NCBI GenBank assembly: GCA_963777605.1
Contig: CAVZRV010000031.1
Coordinates: forward strand, 288,001 to 352,000
DNA length: 64,000 nucleotides
Source: an uncultured Acidobacteriota bacterium
GTDB taxonomy: Bacteria > Acidobacteriota > UBA6911 > RPQK01 > JAPXNP01
Reading direction: 5' to 3'
The translations under genes were made by a program, and so were the position numbers. Positions 3,430 to 49,621 of this stretch are shown here, piece by piece; positions within the stretch are counted from its first letter, which is position 1, and every line of letters starts with the position of its first letter. Under the pieces are notes generated by a model, which was given only the letters and a program-made list of their open reading frames with translations, searched no databases and was not told where the DNA came from.

Positions 3430-6400
3430 CTACTCGACCCGCATGAGGTGATCGACCACCATCCCCGAAGGGGCCGTCTTAAAGAGCGAAATCGTCACCA
3501 CCGAAAACGGGGTGTCGGACACGATTCCGCCAAAGAAGAGGCCAACACTAGAATCACCGGAATTGTTAAAGAAGTCGTACTCGGGGCCACCCGTTCGCAC
3601 TTCGAGTCCCTCCGCCGTCTTGACCGAAATGAAATCCGTCTCCCCCTGCTGGGCAAGCTCGGTATTGAAGAACAGCCCAAAGGCCCGGACCGGCTTGACG
3701 AACCGGATCCTCATCGATTCTCCGGGGATGAAGTAGTCCAGTTGGGGATCGTCCGAGCGGCTCAGCCCCAGGCACTCGTCGCCGATACTATTGTACTTGG
3801 CGTACGGGTTCCCCTGGCTGTCCTTCTCCCATGGCGTCACCAACCCCCGGGTTCCATTTGGATAATCCTGGGTCGGCCCCGGGAACTGCTCGTATCGAAT
3901 GCCGTGCAACTCGGTTCCCGGATTGAGAATGGTTCCCCACTCGATGCCGCCATAACTCTCCGTAATCAGGTCCGGATCCGGGCCGAGCGCTGCGATGAAA
4001 TCGAGGTAGTGCGTGTAGAGACCGGCTGTGGGCGCTGCAGGCAGGGACGTCACGACGCTTCGGCCCTCATCGTAGACTCCCGGCTCGGTCACCCGGCTGA
4101 TGTAGCCGGTGGAGTTACGAATCTCGGCCAGGTAGAACCCGTCGATCGCCCCGGATTCACTGTCCTGCCGCAGCGGTGCGATGTCCCGGATCCCCGCTAC
4201 AGTCAGCCAGGAAACCACACTTCCAGTCGACGGAACCACCAGGGATATTTCGTCGGAAGACTCCTCGACGACAAGCAGGTGGAAGGAATCGGGACAACTC
4301 AATCCGGAGCGCTGCAGCCCCAGAAGGTGCCCGGGCCCACCCAAACCGGAAACCACTTGCCGGCTGGATCCACTTGTACGGTCAACGGCGATAATCCGGC
4401 CATTCACGTGATCGGAAAGGTAGATCGTGCCGTCGCAGGGATCAACAGCGATCCCCGATCCTCCGGTTGAGGCCACCTTGACGAACGATCCTGGCTCGGT
4501 GCCTCGCACCGCCTCTGGCGCCATCCCGGACGAAAGGCCCTGGTTCAGCTGGACGGCTGGGATCAGCGTGACTTGGTTCTGCTCGGCTACCAGGAGCCCT
4601 CCGGTGATGGGGTCCACCACGGCGGCTGTCGGCGCTGTCAGCCCCGTCGCGATCTCAGCGACGGAAGAACTCGAAGCTACGTTCAATCGAAGCACGCGCC
4701 CACTGGTCTTGGCGACGAGGAGGAGCACTTCACTCCCGGACGGAGGTTGATAAGGAAGCAGCTTGACGATCTCATCACCAGAGAAACTCCGGACCGGTTG
4801 CTTGACCCCGTTGGTGACGTTGTCGAGTTCGGAAGAAATCGAAGCCTGTGGCACGAGGTCGGATGTCCCGGCCGTTCCTCCCGTAACCTCACAGGAATAG
4901 AGCCGCTTCAGTGAAGCCAGGTAGGCGACGGAGCGCACAATCCCGAGCCCGGTGATGAAGTCTTCTTTGCGCAGCAGGTCCACCGACGCGCCGACCACCT
5001 GGTCTCCCGCCGTCGCCGTCACCGTGACCGGGATCGAACTGGGGAGGTTCGCCGGCGCCTTGTATACCCCAGGCCTCAATCCGGCCGACCGCGGAATCTC
5101 CATCCGGTTCCCCGTTGACCGCCCAACTGACCAGGCCGGTGGCGCCCGAAGCTTTGAAACTCGTCTGGCTGCCCGGCTGAAGCACTGCCAGCTTGGGTGA
5201 AACTGTGAACTGGGTGCCGCCGTTTCCAGGTTGATACGAGACCGGTACCGGCTGAGGCGGGATATTGGCCAGGGCCAGGCTCTGGTAACTCCCGAAAAGC
5301 GAGATCGCATGAATCGGAATGTCGCTGCTGACCCAGATCAGGCCTCCCGTCTGATCGGCCGACTTCGGAATCAGCTCATCAATCCGCTTGCTCTGACGCT
5401 GTCCAGGTTGGAGGGTGGTCACGTAGGTTCCCAGCACCGTGCCGTCCGGCTTCTCGGCAACGACCTTGACATTCGCGGCCAGCGAGCCCGGATTGAGCAA
5501 CGCGATTCCGGTGAAGAAGGGGAACCGGGTTGCCACGTGTGAAAAAAGAGCGCGCGTCTTCCCTTCGGCCGAAGCCGCCACCGACGCATAGGAGTTCACC
5601 GACGGCACCCGGTAGCCCGCGGTCCCCACGATCTCCGTCGAACTCGACACGACTTCGACCCACCCCTCGAGAAGATTCGAGCCGTGGAAGCCAAAGAGGG
5701 TCTCCACGTCGAGCCGCACGAGCTCATGAGGCCCCAGCGACTGGGTGACCGGGTTGTTGGCGACATCGGCGACGCCGTAGATCTTGCCGTCCGGCCGGTG
5801 TGCCTTGAAAGTGAGGATGGTGGACGTGTCGCCAGGATTGAGCAGAACCAACTCGGTCTTGAACGAGGACAACACGGCCATCTGAGGGAAATAAAGAAGC
5901 TTCGCTCCCGGCTGGACGGGCACTCCGTTCAACCCGAGCAAATCGCCGGGTCCTTTCACGAATTCGAATCCAGCGATCGGGTTGGACGATTCGACAGTCA
6001 GGTAGGCCGCCCCGCTAACGGATCCAAACACCGTTCCAACGTCGAAACGCGCCGTTCCCGAGGCTGAGAGTACGTAGTCCGCAAAACGGACGCCGCTCGA
6101 AGAGTGAAATTCGATGTGAAGGGCTGAAGGCGTCCCGGACGGGTTCACCAGGCTGACTTCGGTCGAGTAGTCGTCATCGGCAAGAACCTGCAGGAAGGCA
6201 AGGTTGGTGGAGGACTGCGGGAGATCGGCACCGTCGAGAAAGGAGATGGAGGGGTTCAGATAGAGGAAAAATCCGGTGAGGTTGTCTGAACCGCTGGTGG
6301 CCCTGATCCAGGCGGTGGGCGCTTCATCCGGGGCAAATGAGCCCCCGAAAATCAAGGACGTGATCTGTGCATACTGCTGGCCGGCGGGGATCTTGACCTG

Positions 6401-32153: not shown

Positions 32154-32197
32154 CCAGAAAGTAAGAGTTGAGGAAGGTAGAAAGACGAAGGCTAAGA

Positions 32198-34654
32198 ATG
32201 AATATGCAAGCAACCCCAGAATCCGCAAGAGCTGTGAAGGACCCGGTCTGCGGCATGACGGTGGACCCGGAACAGACCGAATTCCGCTCCGAATTTGCCG
32301 GAGAACCGGTCTACTTCTGCAGTCAATCGTGCATGGTTAGATTCCGCGAAGACCCGGCAAAGTTCCTGGCAACCGACCAGGATCGGGATCAGGCCGGAAA
32401 GCAGCCCTCGAGCGGAGCAAATCTGGAGACGGGGTCCTACACCTGCCCCATGCACCCGGGAATCGAAGAAGAAAGCCCGGGTTCCTGCGTCGAATGCGGG
32501 ATGGCCCTGGAGCCCAGGAATCCAACGAACTCAGTTTCCCGAGTTCAATACACCTGCCCGATGCACCCCGAGATCGTCCAGGACGGCCCCGGCACCTGTC
32601 CGAAATGCGGGATGGCCCTGGAACCGATGACCGTTGAGGCGGGGGAAGAAGACGACTCCGAACTGCGAGATATGATTCATCGTTTCAAGTTCGCCGTCGC
32701 ACTCGCGATACCCGTCCTGTTTCTGGCCATGGGACCGATGATCGGCATTCCGGTGCATCGCTGGATTTCGGCAAGAATCTCCAACTGGCTTGAACTGGCG
32801 ATTGCAACACCGGCGATCCTCTGGGCGGGTTGGCCTTTCTTCGTTCGAGGATACTTCTCGGTAAAGAGGATGAACCTGAACATGTTCACCCTCATCGCAC
32901 TGGGCACGGGGGTCGCCTGGACCTACAGCGTGGTCGCCACGGTTGCACCGGGGATTTTTCCGGCCGCATTTCGTCACGAAGGTGGTTCGGTTCCCGTCTA
33001 CTTCGAAGCCGCGGCCCTTATCGTCACCCTGGTCCTGCTCGGGCAGGTCCTCGAACTGCGGGCTCGCAAATCGACCAGCGGCGCCATCACGGCCCTATTG
33101 GGACTGGCCGCCAAGACTGCCCGTGTGGTTCACGATGATGGATCCGAAGAGGATATTCCTTTCGAATCGGTCAAGATCGGTAATCACCTGCGAGTGCGCC
33201 CCGGCGAGAAGGTGCCAGTTGACGGCAGAGTGGTTGAAGGAAGGACAACCGTCGATGAGTCCATGATCACCGGAGAGCCGATTCCCGTCGAAAAGAATCC
33301 GGGAGACGAAGTCGTCGGGGCAACCGTCAATCAGACCGGAAGCGTAGTCATAGTCGCGGAGAAAATCGGAAACGATACTGTCCTTGCCCGGATCGTCCAG
33401 ATGGTCAGCGAGGCCCAGCGGAGCCGGGCGCCGATTCAGCGACTGGCCGATCTGGTCGCAGCCTACTTTGTCCCGATTGTTGTCTCAGCCTCGGTAATTA
33501 CATTCATCGTGTGGTCGATCTGGGGCCCCCGTCCGGCCATGGCGTACGCCCTGGTCAATGCCGTTGCCGTCCTGATCATCGCTTGTCCCTGTGCGCTCGG
33601 ACTGGCCACGCCCATGTCGGTCATGGTGGGCGTGGGCAAAGGCGCCCAGAACGGGGTTCTGATCAAGAACGCCGAGGCCCTCGAAGTGATGGAGCAGATC
33701 GACACCCTGGTCGTTGACAAGACCGGAACTCTCACCGAAGGGCGCCCAAAGCTGGTGACGGTTCAGAGTGCCGGTGGGAGATCGGAACAGGAACTGCTTC
33801 GCCTCGCCGCCAGCCTGGAGCGAAATAGTGAACATCCCCTGGCCGCCGCCATCGTCCATGGGGCCGAGGAACAGGGCCTCACCCTGGTCAAAGCGGAGGA
33901 ATTTGACTCGATCACGGGTAAGGGTGTCAAGGGCAATGTCGATGGCCACGCGGTTGCCCTCGGTAACACGAAGATGCTGGAGGAAGTGAACGTCGATCCA
34001 TCTTCCCTCCAGGAAGTTGCGGATCGGCTTCGCGCTGATGGGCAAACTGTCATGTTCGTCTCCGTCGATGGAAAGGCAGCCGGCCTGCTGGGCGTTGCCG
34101 ACCCGATCAAGGAGTCGACTCCCGAAGCGGTCCAACATCTTCACGAGCTTGGCATTGAAATCATCATGCTCACTGGAGACAACCGGACGACCGCAGAAGC
34201 CGTAGCCCACAAGCTGGGAATCGATCGAGTCGAGGCCGAAGTGCTGCCCGATCAAAAAAACCAGGTGGTGCGGAAACTGCAGGCCGAAGGCCGAAAGGTG
34301 GGGATGGCGGGAGACGGCATCAACGATGCCCCGGCACTCGCCCAGGCCGATGTCGGGATCGCCATGGGGAGCGGGACCGACGTGGCGATGGAAAGCGCGG
34401 GAGTCACCTTAATGAAGGGAGACCTTCGAGGCATCTCCAAGGCGACGCAGCTGAGCCGGGCCACCATGCGAAACATTCGCCAGAATCTCTTTTTCGCGTT
34501 TATCTACAATTCCGTAGGTGTGCCGATCGCGGCCGGAGTCCTCTATCCCTTTTTCGGTATTTTGCTCAGCCCGATTATTGCGGCCGCGGCCATGAGCTTC
34601 AGTTCAGTATCAGTCGTGGGCAACGCACTCCGCCTCCGGAACCTGAGGCTCTGA
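32198..34654 (+). CDS. copA: Cu(I)-translocating P1B-type ATPase with YHS and two HMBD domains
   Basis: DPVCGM..YFCS, two YTCPMHP, TGE, CPCALG, DKTGT, SEHPL, GDGIND, YN and MSFSS motifs. Confidence 0.95.
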
Positions 34655-37842: not shown

Positions 37843-38253
37843 TCTCGGCTCCAGTTCTTCGGTCTCAAGAAAGACTTCCAGGTCTCCCTCGAAGCTTTCC
37901 TACTCTCTAAACGTTCAGTTTGCCTATTCATTAACAACAAATAGATAAGTGAAATGACGAACAGGCCGCGCATGACTGATGGAATCAGGTGGCGTCTTGG
38001 GACAACGAGAACGAGGCTCTTGAAGAGCGATTCGGACGAAGGAACTATTCAATGGTCTTGATACAGCGGAAAATGAGTCTGGGCCTTCGGCGAGAGATTC
38101 CAACGGGCAGGTTACCGGGGGCAAGATCCCGAAGCCGTCACGCCATCCGGACGGCTGCAAACCATCCAATTCTCCCGATCCAAATTATCCAGGTTCTCCA
38201 GTTCAGCCAGGGTTTCCAAATTGGCGTTTCAGGTCAAACCAGGCCGGGGACGA

Positions 38254-38883
38254 TCAGAAAAAACAGGACCACAACCAACCCAACTGCAACCGCAAATATC
38301 CCGGTGACACCCGTTCTCGCCGCCCTGCAGCGATCCATAGATAGAACCCGCTCAAGGCCCAGAAAATGAGTGCGGCGGAAAGCAGATCCATGGTGGCCGT
38401 CCACGCGCTGGTTACAATCCAGTCGCGCTCTCGGCCACCGTTCTCGAGATCAACCCCGTTGAAGGTGTGAAGCATGGAGACGAGTCCGAAACTATCCGTC
38501 GACGTTTCGTCGATCTCGACAAGTCCGGCGGCCTTATCAATCACGATCCGCGTAATGAAAGCCGGGCGGGCGACGGTGAGGCTATACCCGTCTGTGTTTG
38601 AGGACCAGGAGATCGACTCGAGTTCACCGGATATGCCCAACGCATTCATGAGCTCCACGGCGCGATCTTCGTCCTTTGCGGCCGTCAACTCCGGCAGGGG
38701 GACTCGGCGGTGGGTGGTTGTTCTCCTCCCCCAGAACTGGGATATCTGCCACTGGGGATGATTCAACATCAAGCCCGAGAACACAAAGATCCAAAGTTCC
38801 GCGAGCAGAAAGAGACCAACCAGGTAATGAAACCGCCTGGCCTGAACGAACAGTTTGCGAGAGCTCTTGATTGCCATGATCAA
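38254..38883 (-). CDS. PepSY-associated TM helix protein
   Basis: RRFHYLVGL, SGLMLNH, MLH and SGFYLW motifs; 3' end possibly frameshifted. Confidence 0.8.
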   Translation of the reverse strand: MIMAIKSSRKLFVQARRFHYLVGLFLLAELWIFVFSGLMLNHPQWQISQFWGRRTTTHRRVPLPELTAAKDEDRAVELMNALGISGELESISWSSNTDGYSLTVARPAFITRIVIDKAAGLVEIDETSTDSFGLVSMLHTFNGVDLENGGRERDWIVTSAWTATMDLLSAALIFWALSGFYLWIAAGRRERVSPGYLRLQLGWLWSCFF

Positions 38884-38886
38884 AGG

Positions 38887-39492
38887 TCATCCGAGCATCA
38901 GGACGAGGAGTACGTTCAGCGCCACTATTCCGAGAAACGCGAAGACGAGGCCGAGCCTCCTTTCACCAGGCAGACGAATCCAGAGGTAGATCCCGGTGAA
39001 AGACAGTAGGAAGACGCCGACCACCGAAAAATCGGTCACGTCCCGCCAGATTTTCAAAACCCACCAGTTGCCTCGAATTGACGCAACGTGGGGACCGGGC
39101 CGTTTGTGAAGGTATAGGATCCGGTCCAGTGCAGAGATTTTCCGTGTCAGGATTCGCGCCTTCCGATTCCTGGTGTCAACCCGAATCTCTATCCGCTGGG
39201 TCGGCTTCGACATCATCACCAGGACCTCTGCCTGCGCCGGACGCTTCTGGATCCAGTCCACCTCACCGTCGACTCCGGCCTGGGCCGCTACGGCCTGCGC
39301 CAATGGGAGACCGTCGAGGTCGGGCACGGTCAGGTTGGATACCGTTCTGACTCGAGGCTCATCAACCGTTTGCGACTCACCTGGATGGTTCAGGATGAGT
39401 GTGCTGAGGGCAAAAACAAGAAGAACAGGCGCCAGCACCAAACCCAAATGACGATGGACTCGAAGAGACCAGATTCGGACAAAACTGCGCAC
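38887..39492 (-). CDS. PepSY-associated TM helix protein (paralog)
   Basis: RVHRHLGL, LILNH, YLHK and TGIYLW motifs. Confidence 0.8.
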   Translation of the reverse strand: MRSFVRIWSLRVHRHLGLVLAPVLLVFALSTLILNHPGESQTVDEPRVRTVSNLTVPDLDGLPLAQAVAAQAGVDGEVDWIQKRPAQAEVLVMMSKPTQRIEIRVDTRNRKARILTRKISALDRILYLHKRPGPHVASIRGNWWVLKIWRDVTDFSVVGVFLLSFTGIYLWIRLPGERRLGLVFAFLGIVALNVLLVLMLG

Positions 39493-39603
39493 ACCCGGTT
39501 GACTCAAATCGATTCCAGTATTGGATGCTCCGAAACTCGCCGACCCCGACGGACATTGCACGCAGTTAGCGCGTCGTGGATCCGCAACCCAGGGCTGAAC
39601 AAC

Positions 39604-40326
39604 TTACTTCGACGCGACCACTTCAGCTCCGAGAACCCTTGGGTTCTTGGAGCGAGCGTTTCGAAACGTCCTCAGCAGTCGAGCCTCGCGGAAGCCGGCT
39701 CGTTTGAACTCTTCGAGGAAGGCTCCGCCTTCCCTGGCACCGGCGATTCAGGAGAACCAGTTTTCCGGTGCTGCCTCCACGGGAGCGGATGCCCCGTCTA
39801 TTGCGATCAACTCCGCCGCGAATACCTGTCCACCCGGCTTGACGACCCGGCCCAGTTCACGAAAGATACTGCTTCGATCCAGGTTCAGGTTGAAGATCCC
39901 GTTGACGAGAACCACGTCCACGGATTCGCTCGCGATCGGAAGAGATTCCGCGTCACCCGCCAGAAAATCCAGGTTCTGAATCCCAAGATCCTGCGCCGAA
40001 GCCCCTGCCTTGCGAACCATCGCCCTGCTGAAGTCGAGTCCAATTACGTGCCCCCCGGGACCAACCCTGCCAGCGGTCACGAAGGAATCCAGGCCCGCTC
40101 CGCATCCCAGATCCAGCACCGTCGAACATTCACTGATTTCAGCGACGATCGCGATATTGGAGACTCCTGTGAACGAAGCCTTTACCTGGTCAGGCAAGGC
40201 ATCAAGAACCTCCTGCGGATACCCAACGCTCGCCGCAAACCATTCTCCGCAGGGAAACGGCTGCTTCTTCGAGGGCTCGTCCGCTACCTCGGAATAAACG
40301 TCTCTGACTTGTTGTCGAATGCTCAT
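39604..40326 (-). CDS. ArsM-like SAM-dependent methyltransferase, probable selenoprotein (TGA at 39748-39750)
   Basis: VLDLGCGAGLD and NGIFNL motifs; reading through TGA gives ENWFS-U-IAGA...FKRAGF...TAA at 39604; hairpin GGAAGGC-GGA-GCCTTCC just downstream of the TGA. Confidence 0.8.
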
Positions 40327-40410
40327 TCCCTTTGTCACGACTTTCGAAACACGCACACTCCCAGTGAGCTGAAATTCAGAACTGGATGATCGGTGAATTG
40401 GGACCACCGA

Positions 40411-40437
40411 TTGGATCAGTTTAACAAACAGATCTAA
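40411..40437. promoter_or_regulatory. Imperfect 12-3-12 inverted repeat upstream of the methyltransferase (candidate repressor operator)
   Basis: TTGGATCAGTTT-AAC-AAACAGATCTAA, with 10 of 12 positions complementary. Confidence 0.45.
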
Positions 40438-40560
40438 ATCACACGCTGCAGGAGACAGACCACGCCGTCTCGAAACTCCGGCCTGGGACAGAAAACATGA
40501 CCTGCTGCGAAGTCAACCTGGCGGAGTCATCGTCAGAGCCCCTTCGCACCGCGCCGCAAA

Positions 40561-40800
40561 GAGATCATTCAGAGGGCGAAGCTGACTACCCTCCCGTTCG
40601 ATTGCAAATGCCATTTCGCCCTCCGGGCTTTAGCCCCCAATCGTCCATCGTCGTCGTGGAACGCGGAAGCTTCTCCCTGAAACTCGAAGATCGGTACCAC
40701 GCGGCTCCCGATACTGAACTCACCACTCCCCTAGAAGAAGGCAGGTGTTCAACCCCAGAATCCTCTAGGTTCTCCAGTTCATCCGAACCGAAGTTCCAGA
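40561..40800. repeat. Degenerate repeat-family copy 3
   Basis: Starts GAGATCATTCAGAG and ends AGGTTCTCCAGTTCATCCGAACCGAAGTT, resembling the two ends of copy 1; the interior is unrelated. Confidence 0.5.
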
Positions 40801-40874
40801 GGGACCACGGAAGCACAACCCTGTTGGATTTGCTGGTGAACATTGCTGCATATCCAACAGTGCCTCCTTGACGG

Positions 40875-40984
40875 ACAAGTGTCCAAAAGGACTCGCCGTC
40901 GAACCTTCAAAGACATAAGACATTCAAAATCAATTGTTTAATCGAAGGTACGAAGGAGAGGACGTATTTGGTACAGGCATTGCA
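40875..40984 (+). promoter_or_regulatory. Sigma-54 promoter with IHF site and candidate enhancer, upstream of the DUF3347-cus operon
   Basis: Palindrome GGACAAGTGTCC (~40875); IHF consensus AATCAATTGTTTA (40928-40940); TGGTACAGGCATTGCA (40969-40984). Confidence 0.75.
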
Positions 40985-41085
40985 ACCTTTGATCCCGAGT
41001 ATCGAACACGGCCCCGGGACGCTGCCTCAGTGAAAAACACGTTCCTCGGGCTCCGGTTCAAAACAGAATTCTCAGGAGAACACAG

Positions 41086-41559
41086 ATGAAGCAAAGATCG
41101 GTGAAGCGAACCCTGATGGCATTAGCAGTTCTCGCGTCGGTCAGCCTGGCCTGGGCCGAACCTGCAGACAAGTCAGTGGACATGATCCTTGGTGACTACT
41201 TCAAGATTCAGTCGGCCCTGGCTCAAGACAATACGACCGGCATTGACGGTGCCGCCCAGGCGATTCAGAAGACCGCCGAATCGGTCGAGACAACAGATCC
41301 TGAGGTCAAGACCCTGGTGACGCAAATCCAGTCAGCCGCCGAGAAAATCCAGGGGCAAAACCTGGAGGCGGCTCGAGGAACCTTCTTCGAACTGACCCGA
41401 CCGCTTCTCGCATACCTCAACAAGTTCCATTCGAGTAAAGACAGCTACTACCGCTTCTTCTGCCCAATGGCCAAGAAAGCGTGGATCCAGTCCGACAACG
41501 ATACCCGCAACCCGTACTACGGCAGTTCCATGCTCAAGTGTGGCCAGCTGATCACGTAA
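41086..41559 (+). CDS. DUF3347 periplasmic metal-binding protein
   Basis: YFKIQSALAQD, FCPMA..W and RNPYYGSSMLKCG motifs; signal peptide. Confidence 0.88.
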   Translation: MKQRSVKRTLMALAVLASVSLAWAEPADKSVDMILGDYFKIQSALAQDNTTGIDGAAQAIQKTAESVETTDPEVKTLVTQIQSAAEKIQGQNLEAARGTFFELTRPLLAYLNKFHSSKDSYYRFFCPMAKKAWIQSDNDTRNPYYGSSMLKCGQLIT

Positions 41560-43670: not shown

Positions 43671-45240
43671 ATGAAGAAAGGAATTCTGATCGGCTTGCTG
43701 TCGTTCCTGCTGGGAATCACGGCGGCTGTGGTCATATTACTGAACCCGATGGGCTGGTCCTGGGCCGGCAGTGCCCATCACTACGTGCTGGCCGCACTGC
43801 AAAAGGTGGAACCCGCCGGAGCCGAAGGAGAATCCGGACAACTCTACACCTGCGGCATGCACCCCCAGGTCATCCAGGACCATCCGGGGACCTGCCCCAT
43901 CTGCGGAATGGACCTCATCCCCCTGAAGTCGTCGACCGGCGGCGCCGGGGCCGCAGCCGAGAAAACCGAGTCGTCCGGCGAGCGGAAGATCCTTTACTAC
44001 CGCGCACCGATGGACCCGACCTACACCTCGGACAAACCGGGCAAGTCCCCTATGGGGATGGACCTGGTCCCGGTCTACGCCGATGAGCAAGGTGCTGAAG
44101 AGCCGAAGAACACAGTCCACATCGACCCCTCGTTCGTCCAGACGATCGGGGTCCAGACCGCGGTGGTCAAACGCCAGGACATCCCCTACACGGTCCGCAC
44201 GGTCGGCAACATCACCTACAACGACGAGCAACTCCACTGGGTCACCACCAAGTACGAGGGCTGGATCGAGAAGGTCTACGTCAACTACGTAGGGCGAGCC
44301 GGTCGAAAAGGGACAGAGGCTCTTCGAGATCTACAGCCCGCAACTGGTGACGACCCAGAAGGAGTACCTGGATGCCCTGGAGTACGCCGAGCGCCTGAGC
44401 ACCGGCGATTACGAGGACGTCAAGAGACGTGCACGGGCGCTCCTCGAGTCAACGCGGGAACGGCTTGCCTACTGGGATATCAGCGCCGAACAGATCGAAG
44501 ACCTGGAGAAAACTCGCAAACTCCGGCGAACCCTGACGGTCTTCTCGCCGACCGGGGGCCTGGTGGTCGAGAAGATGAACCAGTCGCTCGAGGGGATGTT
44601 CGTCAAACCCGGCATGAACCTCTACAAGATCGTCGATCTGTCGACCATCTGGGTTGAAGCAGAGGTCTTCGAGAACCAGATTCCCTGGCTGAAGATCGGG
44701 CAGTCGGCCCTGCTCGAGTTTCCCTATCAACCGGGGCGCAAGTACCGGGCCCGGGTGCGCTTCATCTACCCCTACTTCAACGACAAGACGAGGACGATGA
44801 AGCTCTCCCTGTCGCTGCCCAATCCCGGATTCGAGTTTCGCAAGGACATGTACGTGGACGTGACGTTCAACGTTCCGAGCGCCCACAACGTCATTGCGGT
44901 TCCGGATGAGGCGGTGATCTTCTCCGGCACCCGCAACCTGGTCGTGACCAGCGTCGGAGAGGGCGAGTTTCAGGTCAAGGAAGTGACCCTGGGCCTGCAC
45001 GGCGAGGGCCTGTACGAAGTCAAGGAGGGCCTCAAGGAAGGGGAGACCATCGTCACCTCATCCCAGTTCCTGATCGATTCGGAAAGCAGCCTGAAGGAGG
45101 CGATCCAGAAGCTGGTGGCAGTCCGGAAAACCGGACAGGCCGATTCAAAGGCCACCGGCCAGGAATCGCCTGAAACTTCCAAGGCTCCCATGAAGATGCC
45201 CATGCCGAAGGAAGAGCAGAAAACGCCGCAGCAGCGGTAA
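43671..45240 (+). CDS. cusB: CusB-like periplasmic adaptor with HMBD domains; frameshift at ~44295
   Basis: YTCGMHP..CPICGMDL, YRAPMDP..SPMGMDLVP, GWIEK and QFLIDSES motifs. Confidence 0.88.
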
Positions 45241-45291: not shown

Positions 45292-48200
45292 ATGCTCGAA
45301 AAAATCATTGACTGGTCGATACGGAACAAGTTCTTCGTCATCCTCGCGACCCTTTTCGCAGTGCTGGCGGGCATCTATTCGATCCAGAACACGCCCGCTC
45401 GACGCCATTCCGGATCTGTCCGACGTCCAGGTCATCATCTACACCGATTATCCCGGCCAGGCCCCCCAGGTCGTCGAAGACCAGATCACCTACCCGATCA
45501 CGACCCAGATGCTGGCGGTGCCATTCGCGAAGGTGGTCCGCGGCTACTCCTTTTTCGGGTTCTCCTTCGTCTACATCATCTTCGAGGACGGAACCGACAT
45601 GTACTGGGCGCGCAGCCGGGTCCTGGAATACCTGAACTACGTTTCAGGACGGCTGCCCAAAGGGATTACCCCGTCACTCGGACCCGATGCCACCGGGGTG
45701 GGCTGGGCCTACATGTACGCCCTGAAGTCGAAGACCCGCAACCTGGCCGAACTGCGCAGCATCCAGGACTGGTTTCTGAAGTACGAGTTGACCTCGGTTG
45801 ACGGCGTCTCCGAGGTCGCCAGCATCGGCGGCTTCGTCAAGCAATACCAGATCACGGTCGATCCCAACAAACTGCGGGCCTACAACATTTCGATCTCCAA
45901 GATCCGCAACGCCGTCCAGCGGAGCAACAGCGACGTGGGCGGCCGGGTGCTGGAGATGGCCGAAACCGAGTTCATGATCCGGGGCCTGGGCTACATCGAA
46001 AACGCGGAGGACATCAAGGATATCGTCCTCGGCGTCGACCCCTCCGGGATCCCGATCCTGATGAGGGACGTCGCCATCGTCCAGATCGGCCCCGACATCC
46101 GCCGGGGCCTGGCCGAACTGGACGGTAAGGGGGAAACCGTTGGGGGGATCATCGTCGTTCGCTACGGCGCCAATGCGTACCAGGTCATCCAGGACGTCAA
46201 ACAGAAGATCGAGGATCTGAAACAGGGGCTGCCGAAAGACGTCGAGATCGTCCCGGTCTATGACCGGACCAACCTGATCGAGCGATCGGTTAGCACGCTG
46301 AAGGAGAAGCTGATCGAGGAGGGCCTGGCGGTTGCCCTGATCTGCATCCTCTTCCTGCTCCACTTCCGCTCCTCCCTGGTCGCCATCATCACGCTCCCGA
46401 TCGCCGTCCTGATGGCCTTCACCATCATGCACTACCAGGGCATCAACGCGAACATCATGTCGCTGGGGGGGATTGCCATCGCTGTGGGGGCCATGGTCGA
46501 TGCCGCCATCATCATGATCGAGAATGCCCACAAGCACCTCGAACAGGACCAGGGGAAGAAGGATCACTGGCAGATCATTGCCGATTCCGCCAAGGAAGTG
46601 GGCCCGACGCTGTTCTTCGCCCTCCTGGTCATCACCGTGTCCTTCGCCCCCGTCTTCACCCTGGAAGCCCAGGAAGGCCGTCTCTTCAAGCCCCTGGCCT
46701 ACACCAAGACTTACTCCATGGCGATGGCCTCGATTCTGGCGGTCACCATCGTGCCGGTGCTGATGGGCTACTGGATCCGGGGGAAGATCCGCTCGGAGGA
46801 ACGGAACCCGATCAGCCGGTTGCTGATTTGGATCTACGATCCGTTGCTTCACTTCATGCTCCGCTGGAAGTGGGTCGTCCTCCTGGTGGCGCTGTTAATC
46901 GTGGTCTCGATCTACATTCCCTACACCCATATCGGCTCGGAGTTCATGCCGCCGCTCTGGGAAGGGGACCTGCTCTACATGCCGACCACACTGCCCGGCA
47001 TTTCGATCACCAAGGCCCGAGAACTGCTCCAGCAGACCGACAAGATCATCGCGACGTTCCCCGAGGTGGAACGCGTCTTCGGCAAGGTCGGCCGGGCCGA
47101 CACGGCGACCGATCCCGCGCCCTTGTCCATGATTGAAACCACCATCACGCTCAAGCCCGAGGAGGAGTGGCGGCCGGGGATGACTCCGAAGAAACTGATC
47201 GCCGAGATGAACCAGGCCATCCAGTTCCCGGGCGTCACCAACGCCTGGACGATGCCCATCAAGACGCGCATCGACATGCTGTCGACCGGAATCAAGACAC
47301 CGGTCGGCATCAAGCTTTCAGGGCCGAATCTCCAGGTGTTGGAGGATGTCGGCAAGGAGGTTGAAGCCGTCGTCCGCAAGGTCCCCGGGACACTGTCGGT
47401 CTACGCGGAACGGGTCATGGGGGGCAACTTCCTCGACTTCGACATCGATCGGAAGGCGCTGGCCCGCTACGGTTTGACCGTGGGCGATGTCCAGGACGTG
47501 ATCCAGTCGGCTATCGGTGGGATGAACCTGACCACGACCGTGGAAGGACTGGAACGCTATCCGGTCAATCTCCGCTACAGCCGGGAACTGCGCGACAACA
47601 TCCAGGATCTGAAGGAGGTCCTGGTCGTCGACGCCCAACGGCGCCCAGGTGCCCCTCGGCTACCTGGCCAAAGTCGAGATCAAGAAGGGCGCTCCGTCGA
47701 TCAAGACCGAAAACTCGCGGCCCAATGCCTGGATCTACGTGGACATCTCCGACGTCGACGTCGGCACCTACGTCACCATGGCCCGTCGGGCCGTCGCCGA
47801 GCAGGTCCAGATCCCGGCCGGCTACAACCTGGTCTGGAGCGGACAGTTCGAGTACATGCAGCGGGCCCAGAAGCGCCTCATGTACGTGATTCCGATGACG
47901 CTGATGATCATCTTCGTCATCATCTATCTCAACACACAATCGGTGTTCGAAACCCTGATCGTCTTTCTCGCGGTGCCCTTCTCGCTGGTCGGGTGCATTC
48001 TGGTTCATCTGGCTATTGGGCTACGACATGAGTATCGCCGTCTGGGTGGGAATCATCGCGCTCGCAGGCCTTGACGCGGAGACTGGCGTGGTCATGCTCC
48101 TCTACCTGGACGTGGCTCACGAGAAGATGGTCAAGGAAGGTCGCATGAACTGGTTGCGGGACCTGGTCGAGGCCATCTACCACGGCGCCGTGCACCGGGT

Positions 48201-49129: not shown

Positions 49130-49621
49130 ATGTGGAAACAAATCCTTGCCGGCGTTGTGATCCTGGCCCTGGCCGGGGCCGCCGCCTACCGGTACTGGCC
49201 CGAGGAGATGCCGGTCTGCCAGATCTGCCGCCGTCCCATGCATGCATCGACCTCGTTTTTCGTGACCCTCCAGGACGGGCAGGAAGTGGAACTTTGCTGC
49301 CCCCGATGTGGGCTCCGTTTCCAGCAGGGACGCGACGATGTCCGTTCGATTGAAGTCACCGACTACCTGAGCCACCGCCGCCTCCAGGCTTCAGATGCGA
49401 TCTATGTCTCAGGGAGCTCCGTTCATCCCTGCTGCTCTCCGGAGGAGATCCTCAAAGACCAGGCCGGGATCGAGTACGAAAGGACCTGGGATCGCTGCCT
49501 CCCCAGCGTCATTGCCTTCAGTTCGCGAAAAGACGCCGAGGACTTCCGACTCGAACACGGCGGCGAACTCAGGACCTACGCAGAACTCCAGGCAGAGGAA
49601 TCCAACAACAGCGGGGTTTAG
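49130..49621 (+). CDS. NosL-like Cys-rich membrane-anchored protein
   Basis: CQIC..PM, CCPRC, VTDY, AIYV.GS and IAFSSRKDAEDF..EHGG motifs. Confidence 0.7.
   Translation: MWKQILAGVVILALAGAAAYRYWPEEMPVCQICRRPMHASTSFFVTLQDGQEVELCCPRCGLRFQQGRDDVRSIEVTDYLSHRRLQASDAIYVSGSSVHPCCSPEEILKDQAGIEYERTWDRCLPSVIAFSSRKDAEDFRLEHGGELRTYAELQAEESNNSGV

Follow-up and report, generated by a model that had tools for sequence, protein, structure and literature searches.

The locus described here raises the question of whether an in-frame TGA ends a gene or is read as selenocysteine (Sec) and, if it is read as Sec, what a methyltransferase would do with such a residue. The gene lies at positions 39604..40326, minus strand, of a 64,000-nucleotide (nt) stretch of contig CAVZRV010000031.1 (positions 288,001 to 352,000) from an uncultured Acidobacteriota bacterium; this whole stretch is called the window below. 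An earlier note on this DNA had proposed that the frame runs past ENWFS and a TGA at codon 193 to a TAA at 39604, giving 240 amino acids (aa), that a hairpin at 39716-39734 carries a G-first loop 21 nt after the TGA, and that Sec stands in for the catalytic cysteine of an ArsM-like methyltransferase. Translation bears out the frame: 240 sense codons form a single frame from ATG at 40326, through TGA at 39750-39748, to TAA at 39606-39604, and the protein around the TGA reads ...APENWFS-U-IAGAREGGAFLEEFKRAGF...VVASK*. The start codon is uncertain: ATG at 40326 gives 240 aa, and in-frame GTG codons at 40338 and 40356 give 244 and 250 aa, while homologues are mostly 244-246 aa long. This is very probably an intact selenoprotein gene encoding a class-I S-adenosylmethionine (SAM)-dependent methyltransferase of the ArsM/AS3MT fold, about 240-250 aa in length. 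We put the probability at roughly 0.93 that UGA-193 is decoded as Sec by SelB and tRNA-Sec, the predicted signal being a small hairpin inside the coding sequence, 21 nt downstream.

The comparison of homologous loci bears on this reading. We scanned 185,579 species genomes with the peptide patterns VNGIFNLN and GCGAGLD[SA][LF], neither of which touches the Sec column. The scan confirmed 262 relatives, the best 80 of which (L034-L113) were kept and combined with the window's own locus and two loci of the same phylum (G045 and G098) into a set of 83. TGA occupies the Sec column in 83 of these 83 loci, including two that the search pattern had missed and in whose translations the TGA is visible. 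The loci come from Acidobacteriota, Chloroflexota, Planctomycetota, Nitrospirota, Rokubacteria, Methylomirabilota, delta-proteobacteria, Myxococcota, Verrucomicrobia and Gemmatimonadota. In the family alignment, which has 82 members and underlies all family counts below, identity to the query averages 48% for residues 100-192 and rises to 65.5% for residues 194-240, which makes the part after the TGA the more conserved one; residues G196, A197, E206, F207, F212 and N223 are invariant. Y11, H22, F24, Y36, N57, N142, N146, N148, R151, E172 and W190 are conserved as well and are candidates for lining the pocket around Sec. The family genes themselves end at TAA (30), TAG (29) or TGA (23), and because 23 of the 82 end at TGA, this codon is otherwise a stop in these organisms.

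The genome to which the window belongs (6.73 Mb in 53 contigs, 96.7% complete) also holds the apparatus needed for Sec insertion. More specifically, selA, selB and selD were found with profile scores of 528, 354 and 363 bits, and a tRNA-Sec scored 70.5 bits with anticodon TCA and is called tRNA-SeC by ARAGORN; all four are above curated cut-offs. The selD gene of this genome itself contains one TGA. Among the other genomes carrying the TGA form, selA and selB were above cut-offs in all five that we checked. Sequencing runs, all with only a small share of matching sequence, yielded three short matching contigs, with one run giving none, and a single one of these contigs covers the TGA. This 151-nt contig comes from the metatranscriptome RNA library of a different study and aligns to 39677-39827; its three differences all lie outside the TGA, a match that amounts to sequence agreement and not to proof of transcription.

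The putative Sec insertion sequence (SECIS) was found where the earlier note had placed it. The hairpin, GGGAAGGC-GGA-GCCTTCCT, runs from 39734 to 39716 on the minus strand within the coding sequence; its 8-bp stem is formed by 39734-39727 and 39723-39716, and its apical loop is the 3-nt GGA at 39726-39724, beginning 21 nt downstream of the TGA. The isolated hairpin has an energy of -11.6 kcal/mol. The rules for bacterial SECIS (bSECIS) elements given in section 5 and the Fig. 2 legend of PMC13188914 are a loop of 3-9 nt, a stem of 4-16 bp, a G in the first two loop positions, a distance of 16-37 nt from the UGA and a minimum free energy of -7.5 kcal/mol or lower. The hairpin satisfies every one of these published constraints, as do 65 of the 82 relatives when only the 19-nt core is folded.

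We then aligned the 82 downstream stretches without gaps, counting columns from the T of the TGA. Each of the seven core pairs (columns 17-23 with 29-35) is present in 87-100% of the sequences. Changes on both sides occur in six of nine pairs, a number reached by 3 of 500 shuffles, and the covariation score of 0.152 was reached by 2 of 500. The choice among synonymous codons is stronger evidence for the predicted element than covariation. Within the stem, Phe203 is encoded by TTC in 73 sequences and by TTT in 7, as compared with ratios of 44:38 at Phe207 and 48:34 at Phe212 outside it. Likewise, GAA and GAG number 58 and 16 at Glu199 in the stem and 30 and 52 at Glu206 outside; GGC makes up 53 of 67 codons at Gly200 in the stem, 28 of 82 at Gly196 and 20 of 79 at Gly211 outside; and GCC makes up 57 of 69 at Ala202 in the stem and 42 of 82 at Ala197 outside. 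G25, the first base of the loop, never varies among the 82 sequences, even though its codon gives Gly, Val or Asp. A separate observation concerns locus L090 (3574-3639), where a U-A pair replaces A-U at stem columns 21/31 together with Glu to Asp and Phe to Ile replacements; here, retention of the RNA pair appears to have altered the protein.

In the protein itself, Pfam recognizes generic class-I methyltransferase domains only (Methyltransf_31/25/11), and in NCBIfam four ArsM-type models rank first, all of them below their cut-offs: NF047649, methyltransferase/UXPK-star double selenoprotein (181.8 bits, cut-off 460, profile positions 12-230 of 283); NF041537, ArsM/AhpD selenoprotein (177.8 bits, cut-off 510); NF008823, arsenite methyltransferase (165.8 bits, or 159.1 in the genome search, E = 1.3e-48, cut-off 263); and NF041536, ArsM/DUF2284 selenoprotein (162.4 bits, cut-off 575). 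An AlphaFold model built from 76 homologues has a mean pLDDT of 92.7, and the top 12 Foldseek rows are all ArsM/AS3MT chains (probability 1.00, TM-score 0.64-0.72), the best folds being CrArsM, CmArsM and human AS3MT at 0.70-0.72. In the alignment with CmArsM, the arsenite methyltransferase of Cyanidioschyzon, U193 (39748..39750, motif U-I-A-G) corresponds to Cys224, C26 (40249..40251) to Cys44, V55 to Cys72 and G143 to Cys174. Family-wide, the Cys224 column is Sec in all 82 members, while the Cys44 column holds Cys in 2 and Val in 65, the Cys72 column Cys in none and Val in 79, and the Cys174 column Cys in none and Gly in 82.

Two of these columns lie in motifs that differ from those of canonical ArsM. 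GVSN (residues 54-57, 40156..40167) takes the place of GCGNP, as the earlier note had recognized, and NGIFNLN (residues 142-148, 39883..39903) that of SNCVINL. SAM-binding motif I, LDLGCGAG (residues 71-78, 40093..40116), is retained, with D72, G74, G76 and G78 invariant and C75 present in 81 of 82 members. Both states of a Sec/Cys pair occur at the Sec column, since Cys is found there in database homologues P0003-P0005 and in 28 related clusters at 50% identity. Taken together, the Sec machinery, the TGA/Cys pairs, the conservation downstream, the hairpin and the agreement of the metatranscriptome contig at the TGA support the claim that Sec sits at the catalytic-Cys column of an ArsM-like methyltransferase.

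How this protein relates to canonical ArsM can be judged from a wider sample. A search of 1.84 billion cluster representatives returned 136 matches at E <= 1e-30, and the best 150 clusters were sorted by their cysteines. Of these, 57 are canonical, with Cys at the 72, 174 and 224 columns, and another 3 are canonical with Trp at the Sec column; the cysteine-poor ones comprise 29 whose truncation point is exactly the Sec column and the 28 Cys-bearing clusters just mentioned. In a midpoint-rooted FastTree tree of 190 N-terminal columns, retaining the 148 of 151 sequences with at least 140 aligned columns, the query falls in a clade of 41 (support 0.97) together with 7 Cys clusters and 26 of the 29 Sec-truncated ones. 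A second clade, of 38, includes 21 Cys and 3 Sec clusters, and the third, of 69, is canonical ArsM. None of the 12 cysteine-poor representatives tested reached the NF008823 cut-off, for which a canonical control scored 319 bits, and the cysteine-poor relatives with Cys score higher on the double-selenoprotein models (NF047649, NF041537, NF041536) than on ArsM proper.

Canonical ArsM is present in the same genome. The window's genome has two canonical ArsM genes, at 357.8 and 354.8 bits (cut-off 263), with the motifs LGCGNP, ISNCVINL and WIGCVAGA, and canonical ArsM also occurs in 4 of the 5 Sec-form genomes checked. The two genes, very similar to each other, lie at L023 1381-2208 (minus strand) and L024 1351-2169 (plus strand), on contigs C11 and C31, near 200 kb. 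Both adjoin a matching pair of genes for membrane permeases, of which one is ACR3-like, and the arrangement looks like a duplicated ars cluster. In one of the two added Acidobacteriota genomes, a second ArsM-like gene with one in-frame TGA (G045:C4:94836-95402, minus strand, 199.9 bits to NF008823) is distinct from the homologue of the window's gene, and some genomes may thus hold two Sec methyltransferases of the ArsM superfamily.

In CmArsM, Cys224 together with Cys174 holds As(III) beside the SAM methyl group. The equivalents of Cys72 and Cys174 are Val and Gly throughout the Sec clade, so the selenolate would be the only conserved chalcogen ligand in the substrate pocket; without these two cysteines, the arsenite cycle described for the three-cysteine enzymes would not be able to operate in that form. 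We do not think that the protein is a canonical three-cysteine arsenite methyltransferase. As the comparison shows, the UGA is very probably recoded to Sec through the hairpin inside the coding region; under the mechanism we propose, the selenolate would bind a soft, thiophilic substrate covalently through an Se-As/Sb or Se-S/Se bond, and the bound substrate would be presented to SAM for methyl transfer. A role of Sec as a covalent substrate-binding selenolate at the Cys224 position is likely. The identity of the substrate is put forward more tentatively: it may be a trivalent metalloid that arrives thiol-conjugated or with methyl groups in place (As(GS)3, MAs(III) or Sb(III)); it could possibly be something else; a chalcogen species (Se, Te or S) seems unlikely. 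As a matter of speculation, the rare Cys26 could serve as a resolving thiol in the window's protein.

A number of results weigh against this interpretation, in addition to the limit already placed on the metatranscriptome contig. For the 66-nt stretch containing the hairpin, the folding energy is -21.7 kcal/mol, close to the mean of -21.1 after shuffling (z = -0.20), and 73 of 200 shuffled sequences reach an equal or better value. Single-sequence folding energy was accordingly rejected as evidence for the hairpin, and because the energy is not unusual on one sequence, the case rests on comparison. Even there, the share of paired cells is 81.4% as against 80.9% in shuffled alignments, with 57 of 500 shuffles reaching 81.4%; the covariation is modest and the paired share close to the shuffled one because both stem arms encode conserved residues. 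When the 19-nt core is folded alone, 17 of the 82 relatives do not reach the threshold of -7.5 kcal/mol, with energies of -4.6 to -7.4 kcal/mol, and one of these also has no G in the first two loop positions as folded. An Rfam scan of 39600-39800 at E <= 10 returned no SECIS family, just two chance-level matches (a plastid 3'UTR element and a Brucella sRNA). On the functional side, the inference about the substrate draws on the missing cysteines only, and As(III) could still bind through Sec and external thiols. Finally, the neighbourhood gives no clear functional signal, the largest cluster of open reading frames (ORFs) within 1.5 kb, by BLAST clustering, being shared by 9 of 82 loci.

Among the alternatives, the one that survives best is that the enzyme is plain ArsM, in which Sec replaces Cys224 and which, as the name of the catalogued family suggests, would serve to detoxify or volatilise As(III). 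Both the structures and the profiles closest to the protein are indeed all ArsM/AS3MT, the UxxG motif agrees with the catalogued family, the window's gene lies inside a heavy-metal efflux region, and an ArsR-type regulator is the nearest upstream gene in 5 of 79 loci, with a few neighbours being metal efflux genes. We nevertheless regard this alternative as rather unlikely. The working definition of ArsM stated in PMC5552862 asks for at least three of four conserved cysteines (CmArsM 44, 72, 174 and 224); here two columns are filled, by C26 and U193, and family-wide one of four, so the protein is not ArsM by that definition. Its 165.8 bits fall short of the NF008823 cut-off, its clade stands apart from canonical ArsM with a support of 0.97, and it lies outside an ars operon, whereas the two canonical arsM genes of the genome are inside one. 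A more far-reaching possibility, which we consider less likely than not, is that the cysteine-poor Sec clade (GVSN, NGIFNLN, W-F-x-U-I-A-G) is not an arsenite methyltransferase at all and would be a distinct lone-selenolate enzyme, acting on another soft substrate (Se/Te/S species, or a thiol-conjugated or organo-metalloid) alongside canonical ArsM and not in its stead.

Reading the TGA as a real stop, with a truncated or decaying methyltransferase of 192 aa and a downstream frame that is a mere remnant, is very improbable. Gene callers and public records do hold a form of 192-198 aa. Yet the comparative data already contradict a stop: the TGA is retained in every locus over many phyla, the part behind it is the more conserved one and supplies the last two strands of the fold, modelled with high confidence, the hairpin is conserved with constraint at synonymous sites, and full-length Cys homologues exist. 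Least probable of all is a sequencing or assembly error for TGC/TGT, or a TGA reassigned under an alternative genetic code: a few database homologues do have Trp or Arg at the Sec column (P0006, P0007, P0015), but the contig of the other study concurs at the TGA, the 83 loci come from independent assemblies, 23 of 82 family genes terminate at TGA, selA and selB read without internal stops under table 11, and the Trp entries sit on contigs of 1066 and 1455 nt and may reflect gene calling with TGA as Trp.

Taking the TGA as Sec, we compared the protein with known selenoprotein families. A Sec-containing 'arsenite methyltransferase' (UxxG) has been catalogued since 2007-2008, and genes of this kind are therefore already known. 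In the GOS survey, 8 Sec and 245 Cys sequences were counted (PMC2398784), and PMC5029168 places the family in the top 20 of bacterial selenoprotein families, at 41 proteins from 39 organisms. Table 1 of PMC13188914 lists it as 'experimentally verified' with motif UxxG, plus three fused double-Sec forms, and cites Fomenko et al. 2007 Science. The window's protein shows the homology to PRK11873/NF008823 (E = 1.3e-48) and the Sec motif U-I-A-G expected of this family; it shares with it the ArsM-type domain with Sec in U-x-x-G, the Sec/Cys pair at that column and a SECIS directly downstream, but it scores below the cut-off (165.8 versus 263 bits) and has no equivalents of Cys72 and Cys174.

The three double-selenoprotein models include the best-scoring profiles and have the same UxxG Sec in a methyltransferase domain, but the window's protein is far below their cut-offs and consists of that domain alone, with one Sec. 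Its end, VVASK-TAA, lacks a second TGA and the UXPK tail of NF047649, and the protein has neither the AhpD domain of NF041537 nor the DUF2284 domain of NF041536. These three models are reportedly the work of Haft and Tolstoy (2025, mSystems). With CmArsM (4fr0/6cx6), CrArsM (5evj) and human AS3MT (8xt7) the protein shares the fold, the SAM motif and the place of the Cys224-column residue beside the conserved W..C/U.(A/G)GA element. It differs from them in sequence (24-27% identity), in having Sec for Cys, in the missing Cys72 and Cys174 equivalents and in having no C-terminal domain (240 aa versus chains of 377-387 residues). In the literature searched, we found no paper discussing the loss of Cys72 and Cys174 in Sec-containing ArsM homologues. 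Three points may be unpublished: that these two arsenic-binding cysteines are lost family-wide, that Sec is near-universal in the clade, and how widely the annotation is truncated.

This truncation is evident in the public databases. Only 7 of the best 120 database homologues are full length; the other 113 cover 72-80% of the query. We aligned 19 of the 120: all 12 short ones end ...(N/D)W(F/L)(A/S), one residue before the Sec column, and the seven long ones have Cys (three), Trp (two), Arg (one) or a frameshifted tail (one) at that column. At least 12 homologues are therefore stored truncated at the TGA and, judged by query coverage, so probably are 113 of the best 120. Truncated public entries are about 197 aa long, and the public record of the window's gene is a 192-aa protein. 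Trp exactly at the Sec column was seen in P0006 and P0007 (contigs of 1066 and 1455 nt, respectively) and in P0224 and two other canonical clusters; such entries may have arisen where genes on short contigs were called with TGA set to Trp, and not from a real TGG.

With the TGA read as Sec, the protein regains the last two strands of its fold and the key active-site residue, and a profile built for the stand-alone form with a single Sec would put right many annotations of soil and sediment genomes. The clade retains a single ArsM cysteine column out of four, in the form of Sec, and generally coexists with a canonical ArsM, which makes it a cheap and well-defined target. The questions it poses are what a methyltransferase gains from a single selenolate and whether environmental 'arsM' surveys count genes with other roles.

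The earlier note had also placed the gene in a metal-resistance region, which is right for the window and does not extend to the family. The window is rich in copper/silver-type metal-handling genes. Downstream of the methyltransferase gene, on the same strand, are two genes for PepSY_TM-like membrane proteins (38887-39561 and 38254-38883); divergent from it are a DUF3347 gene and a CusC/CusB/CusA-like efflux system, and a YdjC gene is a further neighbour, so that PepSY_TM-like, YdjC, DUF3347 and Cus-like genes, and not an ars operon, surround it. On the plus strand lie a P-type ATPase with YHS and HMBD domains (32168-34654), the DUF3347 protein (41086-41559) and a NosL-like protein (49130-49621). 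No neighbour is common to more than 9 of 82 loci, and the link with metal genes is therefore not a family trait. We tallied Pfam families in the nearest flanking ORFs (79 upstream, 75 downstream), excluding the window's own two neighbours and with some loci having none within 700 nt. The commonest were PNP_UDP_1 (5/79), ArsR HTH_5 (5/79), Phosphonate-bd (4/79 and 5/75) and LysR (4/79), with no dominant partner.

A promoter scan of 38000-41200 gave no promoter-like site, and a terminator scan of the same region gave one weak terminator-like site (38405-38389), which is not firm on co-transcription with the PepSY_TM-like genes. In the efflux system, the CusB-like adaptor is split over overlapping plus-strand ORFs at 43671-44657 and 44347-45240, the first with HMBD and the start of HlyD_D23 and the second with the rest of HlyD_D23, and the CusA-like ORF (45308-48031, plus strand) covers profile positions 30-782 of 1021 only; frameshifts, pseudogenes or assembly errors are possible causes. 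At locus L034, in a Nitrospirota metagenome-assembled genome, an ArsR-family regulator lies upstream of the homologue and a 143-aa ORF downstream (flanking ORFs at 2600-2938 and 3868-4296); the N-terminal domain of the latter is AIR-synthase-related and belongs to the domain family found in selenophosphate synthetase.

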